From the IMG/VR virus record IMGVR_UViG_2526164598_000015: a stretch of 39,465 bases of DNA; one strand, 5' to 3'. Source of the stretch: a virus (lineage: Duplodnaviria; Heunggongvirae; Uroviricota; Caudoviricetes). The position numbers and the translations under genes are program-made. The notes below the pieces were generated by a model. It worked only from the letters and a program-made list of their open reading frames with translations, had not been told where the DNA came from and did no database searches. Below are positions 1-8,906 of the stretch, in pieces; the first letter of the stretch is position 1; every line of letters begins with the position of its first letter.

Positions 1-1119
1 TCAAATAACCAACTTAACCCATTCCTGACCTCGAGTATCGTTATAGCGATCGGTGGTTGCCTGGACTTTATGTCCTAGTAATGTTTTTGTATCGATACCC
101 TGTGCACGGTACAACCGTTCTGATAGAGAGCGTTGTTCATGAAATGTTGGCGGAGTTTTTCCTGCTGGTGGAATTATCCCAGCCAGATCCCGTGCTTTGG
201 CAAAGTAGTCGCTCAGGTTGTCTTTACTCATCGGCTTCGGTTGTTTCTGGTGCCGACTATGGATTAGATATGGACTTAATATTCTGTCTCGGCACCCATC
301 AATAACTTCTTTTAACGTTATCCCAATGGCATCACAGCGTAGTGTAAGCGGTAACGCCAGACGCATTCCGGTTTTTCCCTGGGTGATATGCAAGTGTTCG
401 TTCCACACATCTGAAAAACGCATGTGGCAAATGTCATCACGGCGCTGACCAGTAACAATCGCAAGAAGCATTGCGTTACGGATAAAGTGTTTTTCAGGCG
501 TTGCATTGTAAATTTTTTGCCAGTCTTCCATGGTGAGCCTGGCTCTGGTTACTTTAGGGATCGGTTTACGGGTAGCCTCCGGAGGATTCCATCCAGGAGG
601 AACTTCCCCTGCATGCTGTGCTTCTTTATAAATATCAACCCATAATCCACGATTTACTCTCGCTGTGCTGACCATGTCTTTATCCAGCCACTCATCCAGT
701 ATTAATGCAAAGTCTCTTACTTCCAGTTCTTTCAATGGGTGGTTTCCCAGACGGGAAACCAGGTATGCAGCCATTCGAGTTTTTTCTTTGTGAGTTGTAG
801 CTGCAATATCTCCATTTTTCAGTCGCGCGTCCTGTATTTTCAGATATCGATCAACCCATGCCTTTAATCTGATGCCCCGACGTTTTGTTGCTGACGGACT
901 TTCATCAATTTTGCGCATGAAATATTCAGCTTCTGCTGCAGCTATTCGCTGATTGGCTGTGGAAGCGATTTTTTCTGCTTTGCCTTTGTCTGTTCCGAGA
1001 CCGTGAAATTTTCCAGTCACAGGGTTTTTATACTGGTAGTAAACCCTGCCAGTTCTGCGATCAAACTTTTCGTAAAGACCGGTTACGTCAGTGCTGTTTT
1101 TTCGTGGCCTCGGTGACAT
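1..1119 (-). CDS. int: Phage integrase, tyrosine recombinase family
   Basis: 372-aa ORF; C-terminal catalytic-type region (..HSRH.., ..LLGHKVQATTDRY..); AGGAG RBS upstream of ATG at 1119; overlaps xis 3' end as in lambdoid int-xis pairs. Confidence 0.9.
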   Translation of the reverse strand: MSPRPRKNSTDVTGLYEKFDRRTGRVYYQYKNPVTGKFHGLGTDKGKAEKIASTANQRIAAAEAEYFMRKIDESPSATKRRGIRLKAWVDRYLKIQDARLKNGDIAATTHKEKTRMAAYLVSRLGNHPLKELEVRDFALILDEWLDKDMVSTARVNRGLWVDIYKEAQHAGEVPPGWNPPEATRKPIPKVTRARLTMEDWQKIYNATPEKHFIRNAMLLAIVTGQRRDDICHMRFSDVWNEHLHITQGKTGMRLALPLTLRCDAIGITLKEVIDGCRDRILSPYLIHSRHQKQPKPMSKDNLSDYFAKARDLAGIIPPAGKTPPTFHEQRSLSERLYRAQGIDTKTLLGHKVQATTDRYNDTRGQEWVKLVI

Positions 1120-1357
1120 GAGTTAAAATCTCCTTCAGTGCATCATCATCGCCAGTATGAATTTCCGGCGCAATTCCCGTTTCACCAGGTCCAACAAATA
1201 CTGCCCGGCGATCTATCAGCCAACGCCCACGAATTTTTTGTGGTCTTGGAACGATGTATCCTAGTTTTCCGTATTTCACCAGGGTAGTGTTTGTTATTGG
1301 GAGACTGAACCGTTTTGGTTTCCACTCGTCAAGCGTTATCAGGTACTGTTCGCTCAT
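1088..1357 (-). CDS. xis: Excisionase (Xis-like small DNA-binding protein)
   Basis: 89-aa ORF directly upstream of and overlapping int; start taken at ATG 1357 (GGAGTG RBS) rather than the upstream GTG at 1366. Confidence 0.7.
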   Translation of the reverse strand: MSEQYLITLDEWKPKRFSLPITNTTLVKYGKLGYIVPRPQKIRGRWLIDRRAVFVGPGETGIAPEIHTGDDDALKEILTHVTEATKKQH

Positions 1358-1418
1358 GGCTATCACTCCGGAACACGCCAGTTGCAGAATACCAACGACA
1401 ACTGGCGACGGTTGAACA

Positions 1419-3890
1419 TTAAAAATCAGCCTGACTCGGGATCAGTTTTTGCCAGATAGCTGAAACGTATTTTGCCTGGTAACGAGCGTCATCAAGTGCA
1501 TTATGGCGCTCACCTTCGAATGGGATAGCAGTTCTGGCATCGAAGTCTATGGCTTTCCCCAGCTCAACGATTGTGCGTACATCGCGATCGTTGTAGTAAC
1601 GCCACGGGTAGGGGATCCCCTGCCGCTCGTATGAACGGCGCAAAATCGTGTTGTCGAAGTTGGCTCCATTTCCCCAGACCTGAACAAAAAATTCACCGGA
1701 GTTTTCGTCGATAAATTCCCGCAATTGTAACAGTGCATCATCTAACGGGATTTCATCGGTCATAATGGCAGATTGCGCCTCGCGTGATTGCTTAAGCCAC
1801 CATTTAATGGTGTCACGATCAATGACTCCGCCAGCAGTTTCCAGATCGATAGTCTTACTAAATTCCGGTCCCATATCTCCGGTTTGCGGATCGAAAAATA
1901 TTGCACCTATTGAGATAATCGGGGCATCAGGATTTTTTCCCATGGTTTCAAGGTCGATCATTAGATGGTCACACGTCCTGCTGGTGGATGTGATAACGCG
2001 ATGACCGTTCACCGTAATTAAGGGATCTGCCGTCTCGCCAGTTTCACTATCGCTGGCGTGATCCTGAGCGCTGCCAGCATTCTCCTTGTGTGGGTGTTCA
2101 GCGCCTTCCATTTTCTCCGAATCGTCTTCCTGAACTTCAACCTGGTTCTTGTCATCGAATGTTTCCTGGTATGTTGCGTCGCCCATCACCGCACCACAAT
2201 CAGGGCAGTTGCCACCACCGCTCTGACCGCAGGCGGTGCAGATTTTTTCCGGTTCCTGTTGCACTACTGGTTCAGGTTGTTTCGTTTCTGGCTCGTTTTG
2301 TTGCGTATTTGGGCTGTTTTGTTCCGCTTTCTGGTCGTTCTGTTCCGTTTCTTGCTGGTTCTGGTTCACAGTATCGCGGGTCTGGATCCCCTTAACCCAT
2401 TTCGGATCATTCGGGTCGCTAATCCCTTCAATAAATTCACCACGTGATGCAGCAAGCAACTTATCGGCGTCAGGCTGGCTGATATTGGCTGCCTGCATAA
2501 TTTTGTTTACTTCGTCAGCGGTAACTTTTACCGGTTCTGGCTGTGCGGTCGTGTCAGATGCACCAGTATTTTGTTGTGAACCTGAGTATGTACTGTTTTT
2601 GCGGGCGAAATATTCTTCTTTCGTGATTTCAGTAGCCCCGGCAGCCAGCGCCTTATCCAGACCAGAAAGTTTGTTTGCGCGACCGTATTTTTCGCCATCC
2701 TTGTCGGTGAAGAGGAAGTAGAACGGCCCCTCACGCTCTACAGATGGTTCGACTTCCACTTTGCATTCGGTTTTTTCGTTGTCCGGAATTGCCGTTTCCA
2801 CTGCATCAGTTTCTGGTACTGGCGACGAGAGAGTATCAGTTGCGCTCTGATTTGTTCCTTCATCTTCAAACACGCCCTTTGTAGTCAGGTATTCAGTAAT
2901 GTATTTGTTCAGTGCCACAGGGTCTTTGTGAATGTCGATCGGACGTTCACGGACAAGGCCAAAAATAGTCTGGCGGTCGTAGCGAAGGGCATCAGGCTGT
3001 TTGCGCATTGATGCCGAGATACGCTTCCAGTCTTCGCGGTCGTTGTCGATAACTTCATTTTTTGCCCAGCGATGAATGCTGCCGTCAATGTTTCCGGCAT
3101 CCACATCACCAGGCCAGAGAGCGTAGGCCAGTTCGTCATCCAGTGTTTTCCATGTCTGCTTGTATTCGCGATGAGTGGCAGCAATGACCGGGCTGATTTT
3201 TCCTGTTGAACTTTCAGTGTTCTGTTGATTGGCTCTGGCGCGGGCGAGATCAACAACAGACGTGTATTTTCCGGTTCCCTTGCGTTCACCTTCGCGACGT
3301 TTTTTCCAGATGCGCATCTCTGCCTGAATTTCGGGCCATTTAGCTCCAGGCTTACATTTATGCTTAACCCACCCGATGGCATGCAACTTAAGTTCCGGAT
3401 ACATGGCGTTAACTTCTGGCATTTTCATCAACGCTTCAACGATATGTCCGTCGAATGTTGCCATGTCTTCCTGCAACAGTTCCTGTGCACTAATCACCAT
3501 ATCAACGGTGATGTTTTCACATGTGTCGAACTTAACCATGACAGCGTTCTGTACTTCAGGGGCCAGCTTGTCAAAAGTGACGTTCATCGGATTTGATTCA
3601 GTCTCAACCGGGACAAAGGAAGCTGACTCCTCATCCCAGCGGTTTTCCCGCATATATTCAGCATCCCAGGAATCGAGGGCAGGGCGGGGTATACCGGGTT
3701 TATCCTCGCAGACAAGAAATTTATAAGCGCAGTCCTGAGCAGCCGGATATTGCTCCAGGAATTGCCAGGTAAATTTGGCACGGGCGCGGCGTTCGTCACC
3801 GGCTTCAATGGCAGTGGCTACAGCAACTGCACCTTCTTCCTTTATTGCCTGTTCGTCCGGAATGGCGGCGCAAATAAAGACTTTACTCAT
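1419..3890 (-). CDS. Large exonuclease: RecE-like (exodeoxyribonuclease VIII family) N-terminal/central region with Cys4 motif, fused to C-terminal DEDDh (DnaQ-like) 3'-5' exonuclease domain
   Basis: 823 aa; C-terminus has Exo I motif (MIDLETMG) and Exo III motif (HNALDDARYQAKY); central segment (LLAASRGEFIEGISDPNDPKWVKGIQTRD...CTACGQSGGGNCPDCGAVMGDATYQETFD) matches RecE as I recall it; Q/E/N/P-rich low-complexity linker. Confidence 0.75.
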   Translation of the reverse strand: MSKVFICAAIPDEQAIKEEGAVAVATAIEAGDERRARAKFTWQFLEQYPAAQDCAYKFLVCEDKPGIPRPALDSWDAEYMRENRWDEESASFVPVETESNPMNVTFDKLAPEVQNAVMVKFDTCENITVDMVISAQELLQEDMATFDGHIVEALMKMPEVNAMYPELKLHAIGWVKHKCKPGAKWPEIQAEMRIWKKRREGERKGTGKYTSVVDLARARANQQNTESSTGKISPVIAATHREYKQTWKTLDDELAYALWPGDVDAGNIDGSIHRWAKNEVIDNDREDWKRISASMRKQPDALRYDRQTIFGLVRERPIDIHKDPVALNKYITEYLTTKGVFEDEGTNQSATDTLSSPVPETDAVETAIPDNEKTECKVEVEPSVEREGPFYFLFTDKDGEKYGRANKLSGLDKALAAGATEITKEEYFARKNSTYSGSQQNTGASDTTAQPEPVKVTADEVNKIMQAANISQPDADKLLAASRGEFIEGISDPNDPKWVKGIQTRDTVNQNQQETEQNDQKAEQNSPNTQQNEPETKQPEPVVQQEPEKICTACGQSGGGNCPDCGAVMGDATYQETFDDKNQVEVQEDDSEKMEGAEHPHKENAGSAQDHASDSETGETADPLITVNGHRVITSTSRTCDHLMIDLETMGKNPDAPIISIGAIFFDPQTGDMGPEFSKTIDLETAGGVIDRDTIKWWLKQSREAQSAIMTDEIPLDDALLQLREFIDENSGEFFVQVWGNGANFDNTILRRSYERQGIPYPWRYYNDRDVRTIVELGKAIDFDARTAIPFEGERHNALDDARYQAKYVSAIWQKLIPSQADF

Positions 3891-4013
3891 TTTGTTTTAA
3901 CCTCATGACAGATTTAAGGATGAACAAATCCCTGCCATTGCTGGCATATAAGAATCAAATCTGATGTATTCATTAAGCTGAATGTCGTATTGTGGCAGTT
4001 ATTTTATTACTGC

Positions 4014-4247
4014 TCACCATGACTCTGCTTTTACAGGTAAACCATCACGACCAAGGAAGACTTTAATCATGGTTTCCTTAATACAGTGTTGTGTGGAAAA
4101 ATCACGAATATAGAGCCGTTGTTTTTTAATGTTGTTTACCGAAGCAATATATGTTCTTCCTTTATGAATAACATAATCACCGGGAGTCACGCACTGACGA
4201 GGAATCTCATCAGTTCCGAAGTGATGAGCAATCATAATTATCTCCAT
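4014..4247 (-). CDS. Hypothetical small protein (77 aa)
   Basis: ORF only; weak RBS; no recognisable motif. Confidence 0.35.
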
Positions 4248-4801
4248 TTTTACAAATGAACTTTGTTGATGCGGTGCCTGGTGCCTCCAGGTGACGTTAA
4301 CCAGTTAACAATTAACGCCGGATACAGAGAACCCACCCATAACACTGTTTTTGGTTTTAACTGTTCCGCGTGCGCTCAGCCGCATTCACCGCATCACAAA
4401 ACTCACTTTAAAAAGGGCGGCAGACCAGTCACGGAGTAAAACTGATACCGCCAAACGTCACCAGAAAATTGATAACAGAGGGCGTTGCAGCGGGGTTGTC
4501 ACTTAAGCGTATGGTCAACCTGACAACCCGGTGTCCTCAACGGGGAAGGAATAACCCCGCCATACTTACCGCCGCGCCATTTCGCGGAGTGCCACAACCG
4601 GAAGCGCACGGTCGACGAAAATTTAACGACAGGCTATCTATGAACCAGCTACCTCGCCGTGCGCTTTCGCGTTATGGTCTGACTTTTCAGGGAAATATCC
4701 TTTCAGTAAACTGTCAGTGCCGGATGCTCACCCGTGTCCGGCGCACGCACTCCACCTCACCCGTGGAGAACTCCTTAATCACCAACCCTCAGGAGGGTGA
4801 A

Positions 4802-5077
4802 ATGTCGACTGAAAATGATGAAATCATTAACTCCCTGATACGCCAGATTAATAATTTTGATAAAGCATTGCAGCATGCTGCGGCGCGTAGTGATATAACT
4901 CTTTTAGCAATTTCATTTCTTGCATCTGTAATGGATAAAAATGAAGTCGTACGACAGAGTCTTGTTGATTATATCGACTCGCTTCAACCAGGCACTTTCA
5001 ATCATGAGAGCTTCAATCATGAGAAAGAGCATGTTAAATCTGTAATTAATTCTCTTGTTTTGAATCAAAAGAATTAA
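4802..5077 (+). CDS. Hypothetical protein (91 aa), AT-rich, predicted helical
   Basis: ATG at 4802 preceded by AGGAGGG RBS; upstream in-frame extension of track ORF 4469..5077 judged non-coding; 3' end overlaps convergent gene by 32 bp. Confidence 0.5.
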   Translation: MSTENDEIINSLIRQINNFDKALQHAAARSDITLLAISFLASVMDKNEVVRQSLVDYIDSLQPGTFNHESFNHEKEHVKSVINSLVLNQKN

Positions 5078-5375
5078 TGCTTTTTGTTGCAAGGTAATTT
5101 TCAAGGGGTTCTATTCGAATCCCTTTCTTTTTCATTAACAAGCCAAACCCCTTATCAATGATGTCCATTAGATCCAGGAAGTATTTTTCATGTAAATCCA
5201 GGTTATCAGAGAGCTGCTTCTCTTCGTACAGACCGATAAAGGCACGACGCACGTTACCGGATATAGTATCGATGGTTTCTTTTTCTACGGTACTCAGGTC
5301 AAGAGTCGCCAGTTGGGAACGAACTATATTCGCTGCCATTTCCTGGAATTGCATTGGTAAATCTTTAAATTCCAT
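5046..5375 (-). CDS. Hypothetical protein (109 aa)
   Basis: ATG at 5375 with ACGAGG RBS; 22 bp downstream of the 72-aa gene, same strand (operon-like). Confidence 0.55.
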   Translation of the reverse strand: MEFKDLPMQFQEMAANIVRSQLATLDLSTVEKETIDTISGNVRRAFIGLYEEKQLSDNLDLHEKYFLDLMDIIDKGFGLLMKKKGIRIEPLENYLATKSINSFDSKQEN

Positions 5376-5397
5376 TATTAGCCTCGTTGGTTAGCTA

Positions 5398-5616
5398 TTA
5401 ACGCGGGCATGTAATCATTCTGGCAATGCTTAATGCCGCTGCTTTTTCCAGCCTGGTGATATCCTGCTCCAGAGCGGACAGATTTTCAGCCTGCTTAGCC
5501 TTGGCTTCATTGGCCCATTTCAGATCCTGCGCTGCATTAATTTTCTGGCGCATCCACTCATAAAGTTCATCATCGGTATAGTCTGGCGCGATGATGACGG
5601 GTTCTCGTTTCTGCAT
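5398..5616 (-). CDS. Hypothetical protein (72 aa), coiled-coil-like; first gene of early-left operon
   Basis: ORF downstream of the putative oL/pL region; no arginine-rich N-like motif. Confidence 0.5.
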   Translation of the reverse strand: MQKREPVIIAPDYTDDELYEWMRQKINAAQDLKWANEAKAKQAENLSALEQDITRLEKAAALSIARMITCPR

Positions 5617-5918
5617 ACTGATTCCTCGCGGTGCTGTTTCCCCTTAACGCCGGGGTAGCGGAACAAAAACCTGCTGCATAGTTATTAAAGTTGAACCCTG
5701 CCGTCATGTTCTTACGCCTCGGGCTGGCTACTTAACCCCTGACCACTGCCGGGTAACTCGAAGTATTGCCCTGCATTCTGTGGGGTGGAGTGAGGGAATG
5801 AATGAAGTTTAGAAAAATAAACTTTACAGGTCAATGTTTTTTTATCAAAACATTTTAAGCAGGCAGCTGTTAAGCCATCACCACGATGGCATACAGTTAA
5901 TCAAATAGATGAGGTTGG
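5617..5918 (-). promoter_or_regulatory. Candidate oL/pL region (leftward early promoter and operators) downstream of cI
   Basis: 300-bp AT-rich non-coding gap; contains ATCAAAAC and ATCAAATA motifs, the reverse complement of the GTTTTGAT repeats in the cI-cro intergenic region. Confidence 0.3.
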
Positions 5919-6557
5919 TTAAATATCTTGTTGAATTTTAAAGCATACGCCCAATATGCAAGATAGATCATCCAGCATAATTGAAGGGTAGCGAGGATTC
6001 GTGGGGACTAAAAGAATATCCGGCCCTTCTATCTCCAGTTTACGAATGACAGGTGTTGTGGTCCCTTTGGGTAAGGCAAGGACAATATTTCCTGGTTGTA
6101 CGGTTCGATCGGGATCAACAAAAACTGTTGAACCATTTGGGATGGAAACTCCCCCACCAGATGTTGACATACTGTCACTCTCTAGAACAACTGCAAAGGT
6201 ATTGGCCGGGATTTCTCCGACAAGCTGCACACAAGAGGTTATTGAGGAATTTTTCATATAATCACTCCAGCTTGCTGCCTGCTGAAGTGATAGTAGCGGA
6301 ACCGTTTTTATCGGCGGTAAAGATAGATCAAGCGAATCACCTGTATTTAACTCTCCTCCATTAAGAAGCCAATTTTCGTTTACTTTCAATATCTTTGCCA
6401 GTGAACTTATGTAACGCGAGGACGGCGCTCCTCCACCGTTCATCCATTGACTTACGGAGCCTTTTGATGCGCCAGTGGCATTGACAAGGTCTTTGCCTTT
6501 CAGGTTTAGCGCATGCATACGTTGGGTTATGCGTTCAGATATTGTTTGCTTGCTCAT
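5919..6557 (-). CDS. cI: CI-like prophage repressor (N-terminal HTH, C-terminal S24 LexA-like peptidase domain)
   Basis: 212 aa; N-terminal HTH-type region (..GASKGSVSQWMNGG..); C-terminal Ser/Lys dyad context (..VVLESDSMS.. and ..PVIRKLE..); divergent from cro-like gene. Confidence 0.85.
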   Translation of the reverse strand: MSKQTISERITQRMHALNLKGKDLVNATGASKGSVSQWMNGGGAPSSRYISSLAKILKVNENWLLNGGELNTGDSLDLSLPPIKTVPLLSLQQAASWSDYMKNSSITSCVQLVGEIPANTFAVVLESDSMSTSGGGVSIPNGSTVFVDPDRTVQPGNIVLALPKGTTTPVIRKLEIEGPDILLVPTNPRYPSIMLDDLSCILGVCFKIQQDI

Positions 6558-6648
6558 GTTTTGATTTTAAAACACAGATGGTTTTGTTTCTTGACTTTCT
6601 TTGGTTTTGATTATTAAACTTTTGGCGTTCAGTTTTATGGAGCGACTC
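6558..6648. promoter_or_regulatory. Divergent operator/promoter region (oR with pRM/pR-like promoters)
   Basis: Three GTTTTG(A/T)T repeats at 6558, 6581, 6604 (23-bp periodicity, like tripartite lambdoid operators); TTGACT -35-like hexamer at 6591-6596; GGAG RBS before cro ATG. Confidence 0.5.
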
Positions 6649-6879
6649 ATGAAAAAATCAGAAGTATTAGGCTATTTTGGCGGAGTTGTTAAAACAGCCG
6701 CAGCTCTAGGAACGTCAAAAACCACAGTCAGCATGTGGGGGGAAGAGGTTCCGTGGAAATGGGCGTTGCTAATTCAGGCAGTCACTGCCGGGGCGCTCAA
6801 ATATGAGTTACACATACCGACGGTTGTCATTCCCGGTTCTGATCATAATCCGCCTTCTAACCAAGGGGGGGATTCATGA
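6649..6879 (+). CDS. Cro-like small HTH regulator
   Basis: 76 aa starting MKKSEVLGYFGGVVKTAAALGTSKTTVSMWG (HTH-like); divergent from cI; GGAG RBS 6 nt upstream of ATG 6649. Confidence 0.7.
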   Translation: MKKSEVLGYFGGVVKTAAALGTSKTTVSMWGEEVPWKWALLIQAVTAGALKYELHIPTVVIPGSDHNPPSNQGGDS

Positions 6880-7301
6880 AAATCAAGCATGAACACATCC
6901 GCATGGCGATGAATGCCTGGGCGCGTCCTGATGGCGAAAAAGTTCCAGCAGCTGGAATAACCCAGGCTTATTTTGAGTTGGGTATGACGTTCCCAGAACT
7001 GTATGACGACAGCCATCCGGAAGCCCTGGCTCGCAATACCCAGAAAATTTTCCGCTGGATAGAGAAAGACACCCCTGATGCAGTTGAAAAAATTCAGGCG
7101 TTGTTACCAGCGATCGAAAAGGCAATGCCACCTTTGCTGGTGGCCAGAATGCGCAGCCACAGTTCAGCTTATTTTCGGGAGCTGGTGGAGACGCGGGAGC
7201 GACTGGTGAGAGACGCTGATGATTTTGTCGCAGTGGCAATCGCCGGTTTCAATCAGATGAACCGTGGTGGCCCGGCAGGAAATGCTGTGGCAGTGCATTG
7301 A
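6876..7301 (+). CDS. CII-position regulator (possibly YdaT-like), function uncertain
   Basis: 141 aa; start overlaps cro stop (ATGA); position immediately after cro matches CII-type regulators; no verified motif. Confidence 0.35.
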   Translation: MKIKHEHIRMAMNAWARPDGEKVPAAGITQAYFELGMTFPELYDDSHPEALARNTQKIFRWIEKDTPDAVEKIQALLPAIEKAMPPLLVARMRSHSSAYFRELVETRERLVRDADDFVAVAIAGFNQMNRGGPAGNAVAVH

Positions 7302-7372
7302 GTGATAATAGCCATATCGAATCACTTCCGGCAACTCGTGAGTAAAAAGATTCGGTATCAGAAGAGGTGAGT

Positions 7373-8443
7373 ATGGCTAACGCCTGGCTCAGATTATGGC
7401 ATGACATGCCAAATGACCCTAAGTGGCGAACAATTGCCAGGGTGTCAGGGCAGTCAATTGCAACAGTGATGGCAGTGTATATCCACCTCCTGGTGAGCGC
7501 GTCACGAAATGTCACGCGAGGTCACATTGATGTCACGACAGAAGATTTGGCAAGTGCGCTCGACGTGACAGAAGAGGTAATTGATTCAATTTTGCAGACG
7601 ATGCAGGGGCGGGTACTTGATGGTGATTTAATCACTGGATGGGAAAAACGCCAGGTGCTTAAAGAGGACAACGGCAATATTTCGCAAACCGCAAAATCTC
7701 CTGCAGAGCGCAAGAGGGCGCAGCGAGAGAGGGAAAGAAAGCGGGAACAAAATGGCGATTGTCACGGCGCGTCACGAAATGTCACGCACATGTCACGACG
7801 AGTCACGACAGATAAAGATACAGATAAAGATACAGATCAAGAAGATCAAAACACTATGGTCCATGGCGTAAAAAACGCCACGAACCAGGCAGGGGATGTT
7901 CAGACCGTCAATCTTGGTCAGCCAGCAGGCACGACACCGGAAGCCGATTCAGCGTATGCGCTGAAAGCCGATTCGGGCGCTGTGCAGCAGGTGATGACCG
8001 CAAGGCCGGAGCAATCACACCAACTGCAGCAGCCTGAAGCCGATTCCGCCATTCAGCGGGAAGCCGATCGGGTAGTCCCGGAAAACACCGGGCAGCCTGT
8101 GAGACGAGTGGATTATCCGGATGTGTTCGAACAGGTCTGGCGGGAATACCCGTTGCGTGCTGGGGCAAACCCGAAGAAATCCGCTTTCAGTGCCTGGAAG
8201 GCCAGATTACGCGAGGGGGTGTCACCAGAGGCCATGCTGGATGGCGTGAGGCGTTACGCAAGATACCTTGCGGCTACCGGGAAAACGGGAACGGAATTTG
8301 TTCAGCGAGCGACGACGTTTTTTGGACCGGACCGGAATTTTGAAAACCCCTGGCTGCTCCCGGTAAGCGGCACGAACAACCAGCGTTGTGTGAATCATAT
8401 TTCTGAACCGGATACCGAAATTCCACCGGGCTTCAGGGGGTAA
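7373..8443 (+). CDS. Replication initiation protein (O-like, replisome organizer) with origin iterons inside the coding sequence
   Basis: ATG 7373 with AGAGGTGAG RBS; protein repeats (SRNVTRGHIDVTT / SRNVTHMSRRVTT) mirror DNA iterons; position after the immunity genes. Confidence 0.7.
   Translation: MANAWLRLWHDMPNDPKWRTIARVSGQSIATVMAVYIHLLVSASRNVTRGHIDVTTEDLASALDVTEEVIDSILQTMQGRVLDGDLITGWEKRQVLKEDNGNISQTAKSPAERKRAQRERERKREQNGDCHGASRNVTHMSRRVTTDKDTDKDTDQEDQNTMVHGVKNATNQAGDVQTVNLGQPAGTTPEADSAYALKADSGAVQQVMTARPEQSHQLQQPEADSAIQREADRVVPENTGQPVRRVDYPDVFEQVWREYPLRAGANPKKSAFSAWKARLREGVSPEAMLDGVRRYARYLAATGKTGTEFVQRATTFFGPDRNFENPWLLPVSGTNNQRCVNHISEPDTEIPPGFRG
7499..7538. repeat. Iteron cluster 1 (four GTCAC(G/A) repeats at about 10-11 bp spacing)
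   Basis: GTCACG at 7501, 7511, 7532 and GTCACA at 7521; inverted copy CGTGAC at 7562. Confidence 0.6.
7759..7834. repeat. Iteron cluster 2 (five GTCACG repeats) followed by GATAAAGATACA tandem repeat; candidate replication origin
   Basis: GTCACG at 7761, 7771, 7781, 7792, 7802 at helical-turn spacing, then two tandem GATAAAGATACA copies at 7811-7834. Confidence 0.6.
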
Positions 8444-8483
8444 GTGTTGATTTCTGGTCATGAGGTAATTTTCAGGAGGACTT

Positions 8484-8906
8484 GTGGCAAAAGTTTTTAC
8501 ACAAGAAGAGCGGGAAAAAATTAAAGGGCAGGTTGTTGAACTCGTACGCCAGAGTGGGCGCGAGACGTTACGACAACTGGAAACTAAAACTGGGGCAACA
8601 AGATATCTGATGAGCGTTCTGGCCAGAGAGCTGGTTGCCAGTGGCGATGTATACAACTCTGGTTACGGGTTATTCCCGTCTGAACAGGCGCGTAAGGACT
8701 GGCAAAATGCCCGTAAAAAGCTCTCAAGGGCAAAGCTGAAGAAACCATCTGCGGTTGATCCGGACCTTATCTGGTCATTACCTGACGGAGAAATACGTCG
8801 CTACGACAGGCGTCAGAACATAATCTGTCGCGAGTGCCGGAAGAGTGAGGTTATGCAGCGAGTGCTGGCGTTTTATCAGGGTAATTTTCAGGAGGTGATG
8901 GCGTGA
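8484..8906 (+). CDS. Hypothetical protein (140 aa), possible DNA-binding
   Basis: GTG start at 8484 with AGGAGG RBS; translationally coupled to next gene (GTGA overlap). Confidence 0.55.
   Translation: MAKVFTQEEREKIKGQVVELVRQSGRETLRQLETKTGATRYLMSVLARELVASGDVYNSGYGLFPSEQARKDWQNARKKLSRAKLKKPSAVDPDLIWSLPDGEIRRYDRRQNIICRECRKSEVMQRVLAFYQGNFQEVMA

Follow-up and report, generated by a model that had tools for sequence, protein, structure and literature searches.

The stretch of DNA analysed here, the 39,465 nucleotides of the Caudoviricetes record IMGVR_UViG_2526164598_000015 in IMG/VR (hereafter the window, meaning that whole stretch), carries on its minus strand at 1419..3890 an open reading frame (ORF) with an ATG start that encodes a protein of 823 amino acids (aa) and is the intact form of the Escherichia coli K-12 pseudogene ydfE. 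The protein joins a YdfE-type N-terminus and a RecE-like centre to a C-terminal DEDDh 3'-5' exonuclease domain, and this identity and architecture, taken together, can be regarded as almost certain. Comparison with its relatives reveals a simple rule: on the same scaffolds, an annealase gene accompanies the form bearing a PD-(D/E)XK nuclease and never the form bearing a DEDDh nuclease. The reading of the whole that we favour, and consider moderately probable, is that the protein is a 3'-5' exonuclease of the early-left operon and that the phage relies on the RecBCD, Chi and RecA of its host. The gene and its parts are laid out as follows.

1419..3890, minus strand: whole gene, YdfE-family exonuclease, 823 aa (ORF list; phrog_2082; exact NCBI sequence)
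3276..3890, minus strand: aa 1-205, YdfE_N-type domain (alpha/beta, then helical)
2013..3107, minus strand: aa 262-626, homologous to RecE 278-592 (BLASTP, E=4e-63)
2247..2405, minus strand: aa 496-548, low-complexity linker rich in Q, E, P and N (composition)
2196..2240, minus strand: aa 551-565, Cys4 motif CxxC-x7-CxxC, putative zinc ribbon (residues; weak Pfam DZR match)
1452..1967, minus strand: aa 642-813, 3'-5' exonuclease domain of DEDDh type in PF16473, to which T4 DexA belongs (Pfam, E=2.6e-67)

Which of these parts belong to RecE? The PHROG family phrog_2082 ('exonuclease') covers the protein from end to end (1-823 of 823), and residues 1-256 are 95% identical to K-12 ydfE (b1577, Qin prophage). 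The Pfam families YdfE_N (PF27430) and YdfE_C (PF27432) are recorded on relatives that are up to 100% identical over a 345-aa N-terminal query (P0002), membership having been read from those relatives' records and not scored on the window protein. The homology to K-12 RecE over aa 262-626 amounts to 39% identity overall and is clearly greater, as judged by eye, in the last ~150 residues. Given that the solved structure of the RecE nuclease (3H4R) spans RecE 605-866, and that the homology ends at RecE 592, 13 residues short of it, the similarity stops at the domain boundary. In keeping with this, the NCBIfam RecE equivalog NF007259 matches only aa 238-626 (model positions 261-603 of 877) with 285.5 bits against a curated cut-off of 1269, and the Pfam scan of the window protein returned neither the RecE N-terminal domain PF06630 (Exonuc_VIII) nor any PD-(D/E)XK family, the RecE-type DUF3799 included. 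The four cysteines of the Cys4 motif (C551, C554, C562 and C565), where Pfam DZR matches at E=0.12, align in BLASTP with RecE C518-C532, and the linker preceding them consists of Q (23%), E (15%), P (11%) and N (11%) in the main. An AlphaFold2 model of aa 1-460 (mean predicted local distance difference test score, pLDDT, 76.8) shows confident separate domains at 1-200, 245-340 and 390-435 with disordered linkers between them.

The first-pass annotation, made from the letters of the window, had called the protein RecE-like. This holds for the centre, where the Cys4 motif and the Q/E/N/P linker that it described were both recovered, but not for the N-terminal 260 residues, which are of YdfE type, nor at the level of the RecE equivalog (285 vs 1269 bits). 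Its further proposal, that a DEDDh domain occupies the place of the PD-(D/E)XK nuclease, withstood both the domain search and the alignment to RecE, which revealed no canonical RecE nuclease domain.

The DEDDh domain itself is assigned with a wide margin: PF16473 (Rv2179c-like 3'-5' exonuclease) matches aa 642-813 with 226.4 bits against a threshold of 27, over profile positions 2-177 of 177. The five residues of the DEDDh signature (D646, E648, D746, H796 and D801) are all in place. They pair one-to-one with D7, E9, D119, H186 and D191 of DexA and are invariant in the homologue alignment, D801 nearly so. Among 90 distinct fused homologues reaching down to 50% identity, 87-89 retain the catalytic residues. 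Family membership thus points to a metal-dependent 3'-5' exonuclease, with that polarity predicted to apply to DNA.

How the nuclease end relates to the rest of the protein emerged from an exhaustive search of 1.84 billion representative proteins clustered at 50% identity, which gave 11,806 matches at E<=0.001; a word-indexed search with the N-terminal 345 aa had returned only close, mostly partial copies. The boundaries of the segments shared by the mosaic forms were mapped by protein comparison, and the following architectures were distinguished.

YdfE-type scaffold with DEDDh domain: the window protein
Scaffold with the RecE N-terminal domain (PF06630) and DEDDh domain: P0133, P0137, P0158, P0122 and phage vB_EcoS-689R5
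YdfE-type scaffold with PD-(D/E)XK domain (DUF3799): P0142, with YdfE_N, YdfE_C and DUF3799
YdfE-type scaffold without a nuclease domain: P0129
Standalone DEDDh domain of ~180-200 aa without a scaffold, 45-50% identity: many proteins

PF06630 is present in the DEDDh fusion L005 as well. The nuclease end is therefore interchangeable on the same scaffolds, being a 5'-3' nuclease of the PD-(D/E)XK type, a DEDDh domain or none at all. Scaffold-only relatives of ~700-790 aa with YdfE_N and YdfE_C were seen in L011-L014 (gene at L011:5001-7109) and L258; they lie in the same slot, from kil to xis-int, with no annealase and no recognisable nuclease domain, and are probably what Zheng et al. (2025, PMC12315714) call 'RecE-2'.

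Does the company of the gene change with its nuclease? The scaffold gene was found in 257 loci, drawn from 244 IMG/VR loci retrieved with four queries and from further loci; for each, the nuclease domain of the scaffold protein was classified and all ORFs were searched for annealases and RecBCD inhibitors.

DEDDh loci (82 with the YdfE N-terminus, 38 with the RecE N-terminus): n = 120; annealase in 0; Gam or Abc2 in 0
PD-(D/E)XK loci: n = 127; annealase (RecT-family) in 125; Gam or Abc2 in 0
Loci without a recognised nuclease domain (several of them split or truncated at a contig end): n = 10; annealase in 0; Gam or Abc2 in 0

The two PD-(D/E)XK loci without RecT are uninformative, as their contigs end 1-2 bp past the nuclease gene; in the others the start of the RecT-family gene falls within -64 to +14 bp of the nuclease stop, with one exception. 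When scaffolds are grouped at 70% identity, none of the 14 DEDDh clusters has an annealase, and each of the 12 PD-(D/E)XK clusters has one. At least 1 kb of downstream sequence is available in 115 of the 120 DEDDh loci, the next gene being mostly an integrase, and the ten recurrent unassigned same-strand ORFs of these loci (regulators, a stray head protein, small families) include no annealase. The means of detection matter here: the gene downstream of P0142 has a Pfam RecT match at 2e-36 and is not significant in BLASTP against K-12 RecT (E=0.17), which shows that a single-seed BLAST is insufficient to exclude an annealase. Five annealase seeds were therefore used with phmmer, together with PHROG checks.

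The surroundings of the gene in the window conform to this rule.

1..1119, minus strand: ORF at the window's left end (ORF list; annotation of relative L001)
1088..1366, minus strand: xis, directly downstream of the exonuclease gene (Pfam Exc; 'excisionase' by PGAP in a 98.9%-identical relative)
4014..4247, minus strand: kil, directly upstream in the same leftward operon (phrog_294 Kil, E=2.6e-34)
5806..5848, minus strand: promoter-like sites directed leftward, next to the repressor gene on its left, at the expected position of pL (positional, weak)
13628..13993, plus strand: RusA-like Holliday-junction resolvase (phrog_34, E=1.5e-56)

Only 52 bp separate the exonuclease stop (1419) from the start of xis (1366), and so there is no room for an annealase gene between them. 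PHROG scans of 30 other window ORFs recognised, besides lysis and structural proteins, Kil, the repressor, regulators resembling Cro and CII, a replication initiator, RusA, antiterminators resembling Q and a methyltransferase, and found no annealase, SSB, Gam or Abc2; apart from the exonuclease, RusA alone was recognised in the window as related to recombination. Searches with phmmer over all window ORFs of at least 60 aa, using as seeds RecT (two), lambda Bet, P22 Erf, HK620 Sak4, Gam and Abc2, likewise gave nothing. The window stops past lom and lacks the prophage's tail-fibre end. No annealase adjoins the gene in the regions fetched from three related phages, and the complete genome of one relative, phage Tritos, is described by Zheng et al. 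as being without one (PMC12315714). The earlier statement that no annealase lies before xis or elsewhere in the window has accordingly stood, and has been extended to the gene-flanking regions of those three phages and to the published Tritos genome.

A second feature of the window concerns Chi. Chi (GCTGGTGG) occurs in it 17 times, against 1.65 expected and with none of 100 shuffles reaching 17, and all sites fall within 164..23730, one of them inside the exonuclease gene.

Chi sites on the plus (late-gene) strand, 13: 164, 1980, 7136, 7181, 12613, 12797, 14685, 15001, 16814, 16923, 20211, 20679, 23723
Chi sites on the minus strand, 4: 13203, 13255, 15816, 17271

Across the early regions of the fetched loci, which are related to one another, late-strand Chi sites number 3.24 per 10 kb where the scaffold carries DEDDh vs 0.82 where it carries PD-(D/E)XK; on the other strand the two are alike (0.42 and 0.34, respectively). 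These properties recall a class of lambdoid recombination module defined recently. In the main text of Zheng et al. (2025), Tritos is the prototype of a nuclease-only Rec module that has no annealase, SSB or anti-RecBCD protein; phages with this module have Chi counts of 21/6 to 7/2; the lambdoid Rec modules include DnaQ-like 3'-5' nucleases and a 'RecE-2' that lacks a nuclease domain; and phages without recombination genes of their own are argued to use RecBCD via Chi (PMC12315714). That text treats DnaQ-like nucleases in general and not the typing of the Tritos nuclease. The window has the features of a Tritos-type module: a nuclease is present, an annealase, SSB and anti-RecBCD protein are absent, and Chi is abundant and biased to the top (late-gene) strand.

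What might a nuclease of this kind do in a phage without an annealase? That the phage relies on host recombination is likely, judging from the genomic context and from the argument of Zheng et al. (PMC12315714). It would run no resection-and-annealing pathway of its own and leave recombination to the RecBCD, Chi and RecA of the host, with its own RusA (13628-13993) resolving the junctions. The gene order int, xis, exonuclease, kil or ydfD-dicB, and then the repressor is constant in every relative examined, and a promoter and terminator scan, weak in that its hit count equalled the shuffle expectation, found no promoter-like site directly upstream of the exonuclease gene; we infer that the gene is expressed from pL in the early-left operon during infection or induction and is silent in the lysogen. 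RecBCD binds flush ends, and 3' tails block reloading of the helicase at double-strand ends unless 3'-5' single-strand exonucleases remove them (PMC5592934). Because RecBCD requires flush ends, tail trimming would let it load. The likeliest role, though less than evenly probable, is that the exonuclease trims 3' single-stranded tails at the ends of phage DNA, whereupon RecBCD would load and proceed to Chi; the scaffold would bring the nuclease either to such ends or to some partner in the host. This end-blunting role, as distinct from the reliance on host recombination, is put forward only tentatively.

Several considerations weigh against the favoured reading. The ExoI, ExoX and SbcCD of the host already trim 3' tails, which leaves the need for a phage copy unexplained. 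The existence of scaffold-only variants suggests that the scaffold has a role independent of the nuclease. The polarity of all fused members, as well as their substrate, DNA or RNA, is predicted from membership of PF16473, a family that spans an RNase and a DNase. The seeds used in the searches span four annealase families, and an annealase of novel fold could escape them. The loci on which the co-occurrence and the Chi comparison rest are phylogenetically related, such that the raw counts and the p-value overstate their independence. Finally, according to the main text of Zheng et al., DnaQ-like 3'-5' nucleases usually inhibit homologous recombination (PMC12315714), since they can destroy the 3' tail that RecA needs.

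Why should one scaffold accept two kinds of nuclease end, each with its own rule of company? A bolder thought, less probable than the end-blunting role, is that the RecE/YdfE scaffold acts as a platform that delivers DNA-end processing in general, with two cargoes that would serve two mutually exclusive recombination strategies. A 5'-3' nuclease together with RecT would provide self-contained annealing, and a DEDDh domain alone would ready ends for the RecBCD-Chi-RecA route. Should this be true, the DEDDh form would be the first phage-encoded factor that aids RecBCD rather than blocking it.

Among other explanations, the one that survives best, unlikely as it is, holds that the protein is a counter-defence or host-takeover nuclease that degrades nucleic acids of the host or of a defence system with free 3' ends or scavenges nucleotides in the manner of T4 DexA. 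DexA scavenges host DNA, according to an abstract and to database annotation; early lytic expression would fit such a function, and a role outside recombination would agree with the lack of an annealase. However, no specific target was found, and the domain fills the slot of the RecE nuclease and RecT cassette on scaffolds shared with RecE, which speaks for DNA-end metabolism and not for signalling molecules. Nor does host takeover predict the strong link to Chi-rich genomes.

It is quite improbable that the protein serves in defence or superinfection exclusion, as a nuclease against the modified DNA of incoming phages. This idea draws on EcD ('HREX'), a standalone E. coli homologue reported by Kang et al. 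(2025, PMC12153337) to degrade DNA containing 5-hydroxymethylcytosine (5hmC), to act on T4 DNA and to give protection from that phage. The domain belongs to the Pfam family of DexA, many standalone homologues (~180-200 aa, 45-50% identity) exist, and the position of DexA W152, part of the 5hmC-recognition signature (W at W152, acidic at D169), holds an aromatic residue in the window protein, Y766. Yet that tyrosine is not the tryptophan of the signature, the D169 position is Ala780 and is acidic in just 1 of 90 fused homologues, and D90, which forms the tetramer in DexA, is Ala in EcD and defines the EcD-like dimer by its loss, is kept as D718. The residues specific to EcD therefore do not carry over cleanly, the alignment around the D169/W152 loop being less certain than at the catalytic motifs. 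PADLOC assigned the protein to no defence system and gave just a weak match to a generic Cas-associated DEDDh (E=1.6e-4); a gene that lies in the early operon read leftward, and for which the weak scan detected no separate promoter, should be silent in a lysogen; and the HREX claim comes from one paper on a different, single-domain protein.

With about the same low probability, the protein could be an RNA 3'-5' exonuclease acting on host or phage transcripts. The Pfam name (Rv2179c-like exoribonuclease), some NCBI names and a weak Pfam match of the window protein to RNase_T would favour this. PF16473, however, includes both an RNase (Rv2179c) and a DNase (DexA), and because T4 DexA itself scores 79.9 bits in it, the 'exoribonuclease' in the family's name does not settle the substrate. 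The sole solved relative found by sequence at E<=0.01 is 8KEL/8KEN, which the alignment text identifies as the DNA exonuclease T4 DexA, with no Rv2179c chain among the solved-structure matches at that threshold, and the fusion partner is a DNA-recombination scaffold.

The distribution of the gene bears on a last alternative. It is present at a coverage of at least 80% in 3,533 of 5,426 complete E. coli genomes, and genomes with any matching place have a median of two (partial matches counted) and a maximum of ten. NCBI holds the exact protein as 'MULTISPECIES: exonuclease [Enterobacteriaceae]', and its 90%-identity cluster has 23,183 members. The phage records mEp460, Tritos, HannyBb, Evi, PhiR42_1 and the PPompW group carry the gene at 91-96% DNA identity, the Tritos nuclease gene (TRITO_27) being 92.5% identical to the window gene over its whole length. 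Full-length 'exonuclease' genes are annotated by PGAP beneath the genome matches listed. Some copies are interrupted by insertion sequences, namely IS4-like ISVsa5 in strain 2014EL-1345-2 (H31, NZ_CP024223.1) and IS2 in K-12 Qin (L006:7079-8549). That the gene is a decaying RecET remnant without current function, as these disrupted copies, a few homologues with catalytic substitutions and the defective state of the Rac and Qin prophages might suggest, is very improbable in view of its presence at that coverage in so many genomes and in phage genome records (mEp460, Tritos, HannyBb, Evi and PhiR42_1), of the conservation of its catalytic residues down to 50% identity, and of the DEDDh domain being a gain and not a truncation.

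Having set these alternatives aside with varying firmness, we retain the reading of an early 3'-5' exonuclease in a phage dependent on its host's RecBCD, Chi and RecA. Both the gene and the nuclease-only module had been catalogued and published before, and the gene is among the commonest prophage genes of E. coli; what is new here is the co-occurrence rule linking annealase and nuclease type, together with a testable mechanism, and not a new kind of system. No functional study of ydfE or of the fused exonuclease was found in the literature searched, and the earlier remark that the role of the protein is unclear stands to that extent. The significance of the gene lies in part in its being present in most complete E. 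coli genomes, yet represented in the K-12 reference by a truncated pseudogene. The annealase/nuclease-type rule offers a testable handle both on the role of the large RecE region of no known function and on how lambdoid phages without a recombination system of their own use the RecBCD-Chi of the host. The public labels of the gene vary ('exodeoxyribonuclease VIII', 'exonuclease VIII, ds DNA exonuclease', 'exonuclease', '3'-5' exonuclease' and '3'-5' exoribonuclease'), and in many records 'exodeoxyribonuclease VIII' or 'dsDNA exonuclease' implies a fold and polarity that are wrong and unsupported by the sequence. Entries named 'exonuclease, partial' that stop at a contig edge number in the thousands in public databases, likely because several near-identical copies within a genome break short-read assemblies.

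Some further features of the window deserve mention in their own right. At 10115-11524 (minus strand), two adjacent genes form an island of 35-37% GC against a window mean of ~50%; one encodes 304 aa (Pfam DUF6731, phrog_7651) and the other 159 aa, the latter falling in phrog_8552 and matching RexB weakly in PADLOC (E=0.0015). The pair may constitute a moron, namely an exclusion module of two genes resembling RexAB. Two matches to Q-like antiterminators lie ~4 kb apart on the plus strand, at 9753-10109 (phrog_79) and 13990-14544 (phrog_753), with the low-GC island, a DUF968 gene and the RusA gene between them. A plus-strand ORF at 4469-5077 stands inside the early operon that runs leftward, with kil on one side and the phrog_6937 gene on the other, where Rac has sieB; it has no match in Pfam, PHROGs or PADLOC, and its counterpart in a relative is a 145-aa hypothetical protein according to PGAP. 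Three tRNA genes occupy 16223-16472 (plus strand), immediately following the DNA methyltransferase gene and preceding those for lysis, with the anticodons CAT (called Met; Ile by PGAP in a relative), TCG (Arg) and TCT (Arg).

How, finally, does the protein compare with the systems already described? With T4 DexA and EcD it shares the Pfam family and the five DEDDh residues; DexA, however, has 227 aa and EcD is a short single-domain protein, whereas the window domain, ~25% identical to that of DexA, is the C-terminus of an 823-aa protein. With RecE (exonuclease VIII of Rac) it shares a central region homologous to RecE 278-592, Cys4 included, a similar size (823 vs 866 aa) and the operon slot from kil to xis, which in Rac holds recE followed by recT, ralR and rcbA. 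It differs from RecE in lacking the PD-(D/E)XK domain, PF06630 and an adjoining recT, and its predicted polarity is the opposite one (3'-5' vs 5'-3'). The likeness to K-12 ydfE extends to the neighbourhood seen in relatives (ydfD, dicB or kil, then the repressor), but the K-12 copy ends after ~256 residues at IS2, so that the RecE-like centre and the DEDDh domain were never seen in the reference strain. From Tritos, by contrast, there is no difference of substance: the order int-xis-exo, the absence of an annealase and of an anti-RecBCD protein and the many Chi sites (13/4 in the window) are common to both, mEp460, HannyBb, Evi and PPompW can be listed beside Tritos here, and the window gene is another allele of the same.

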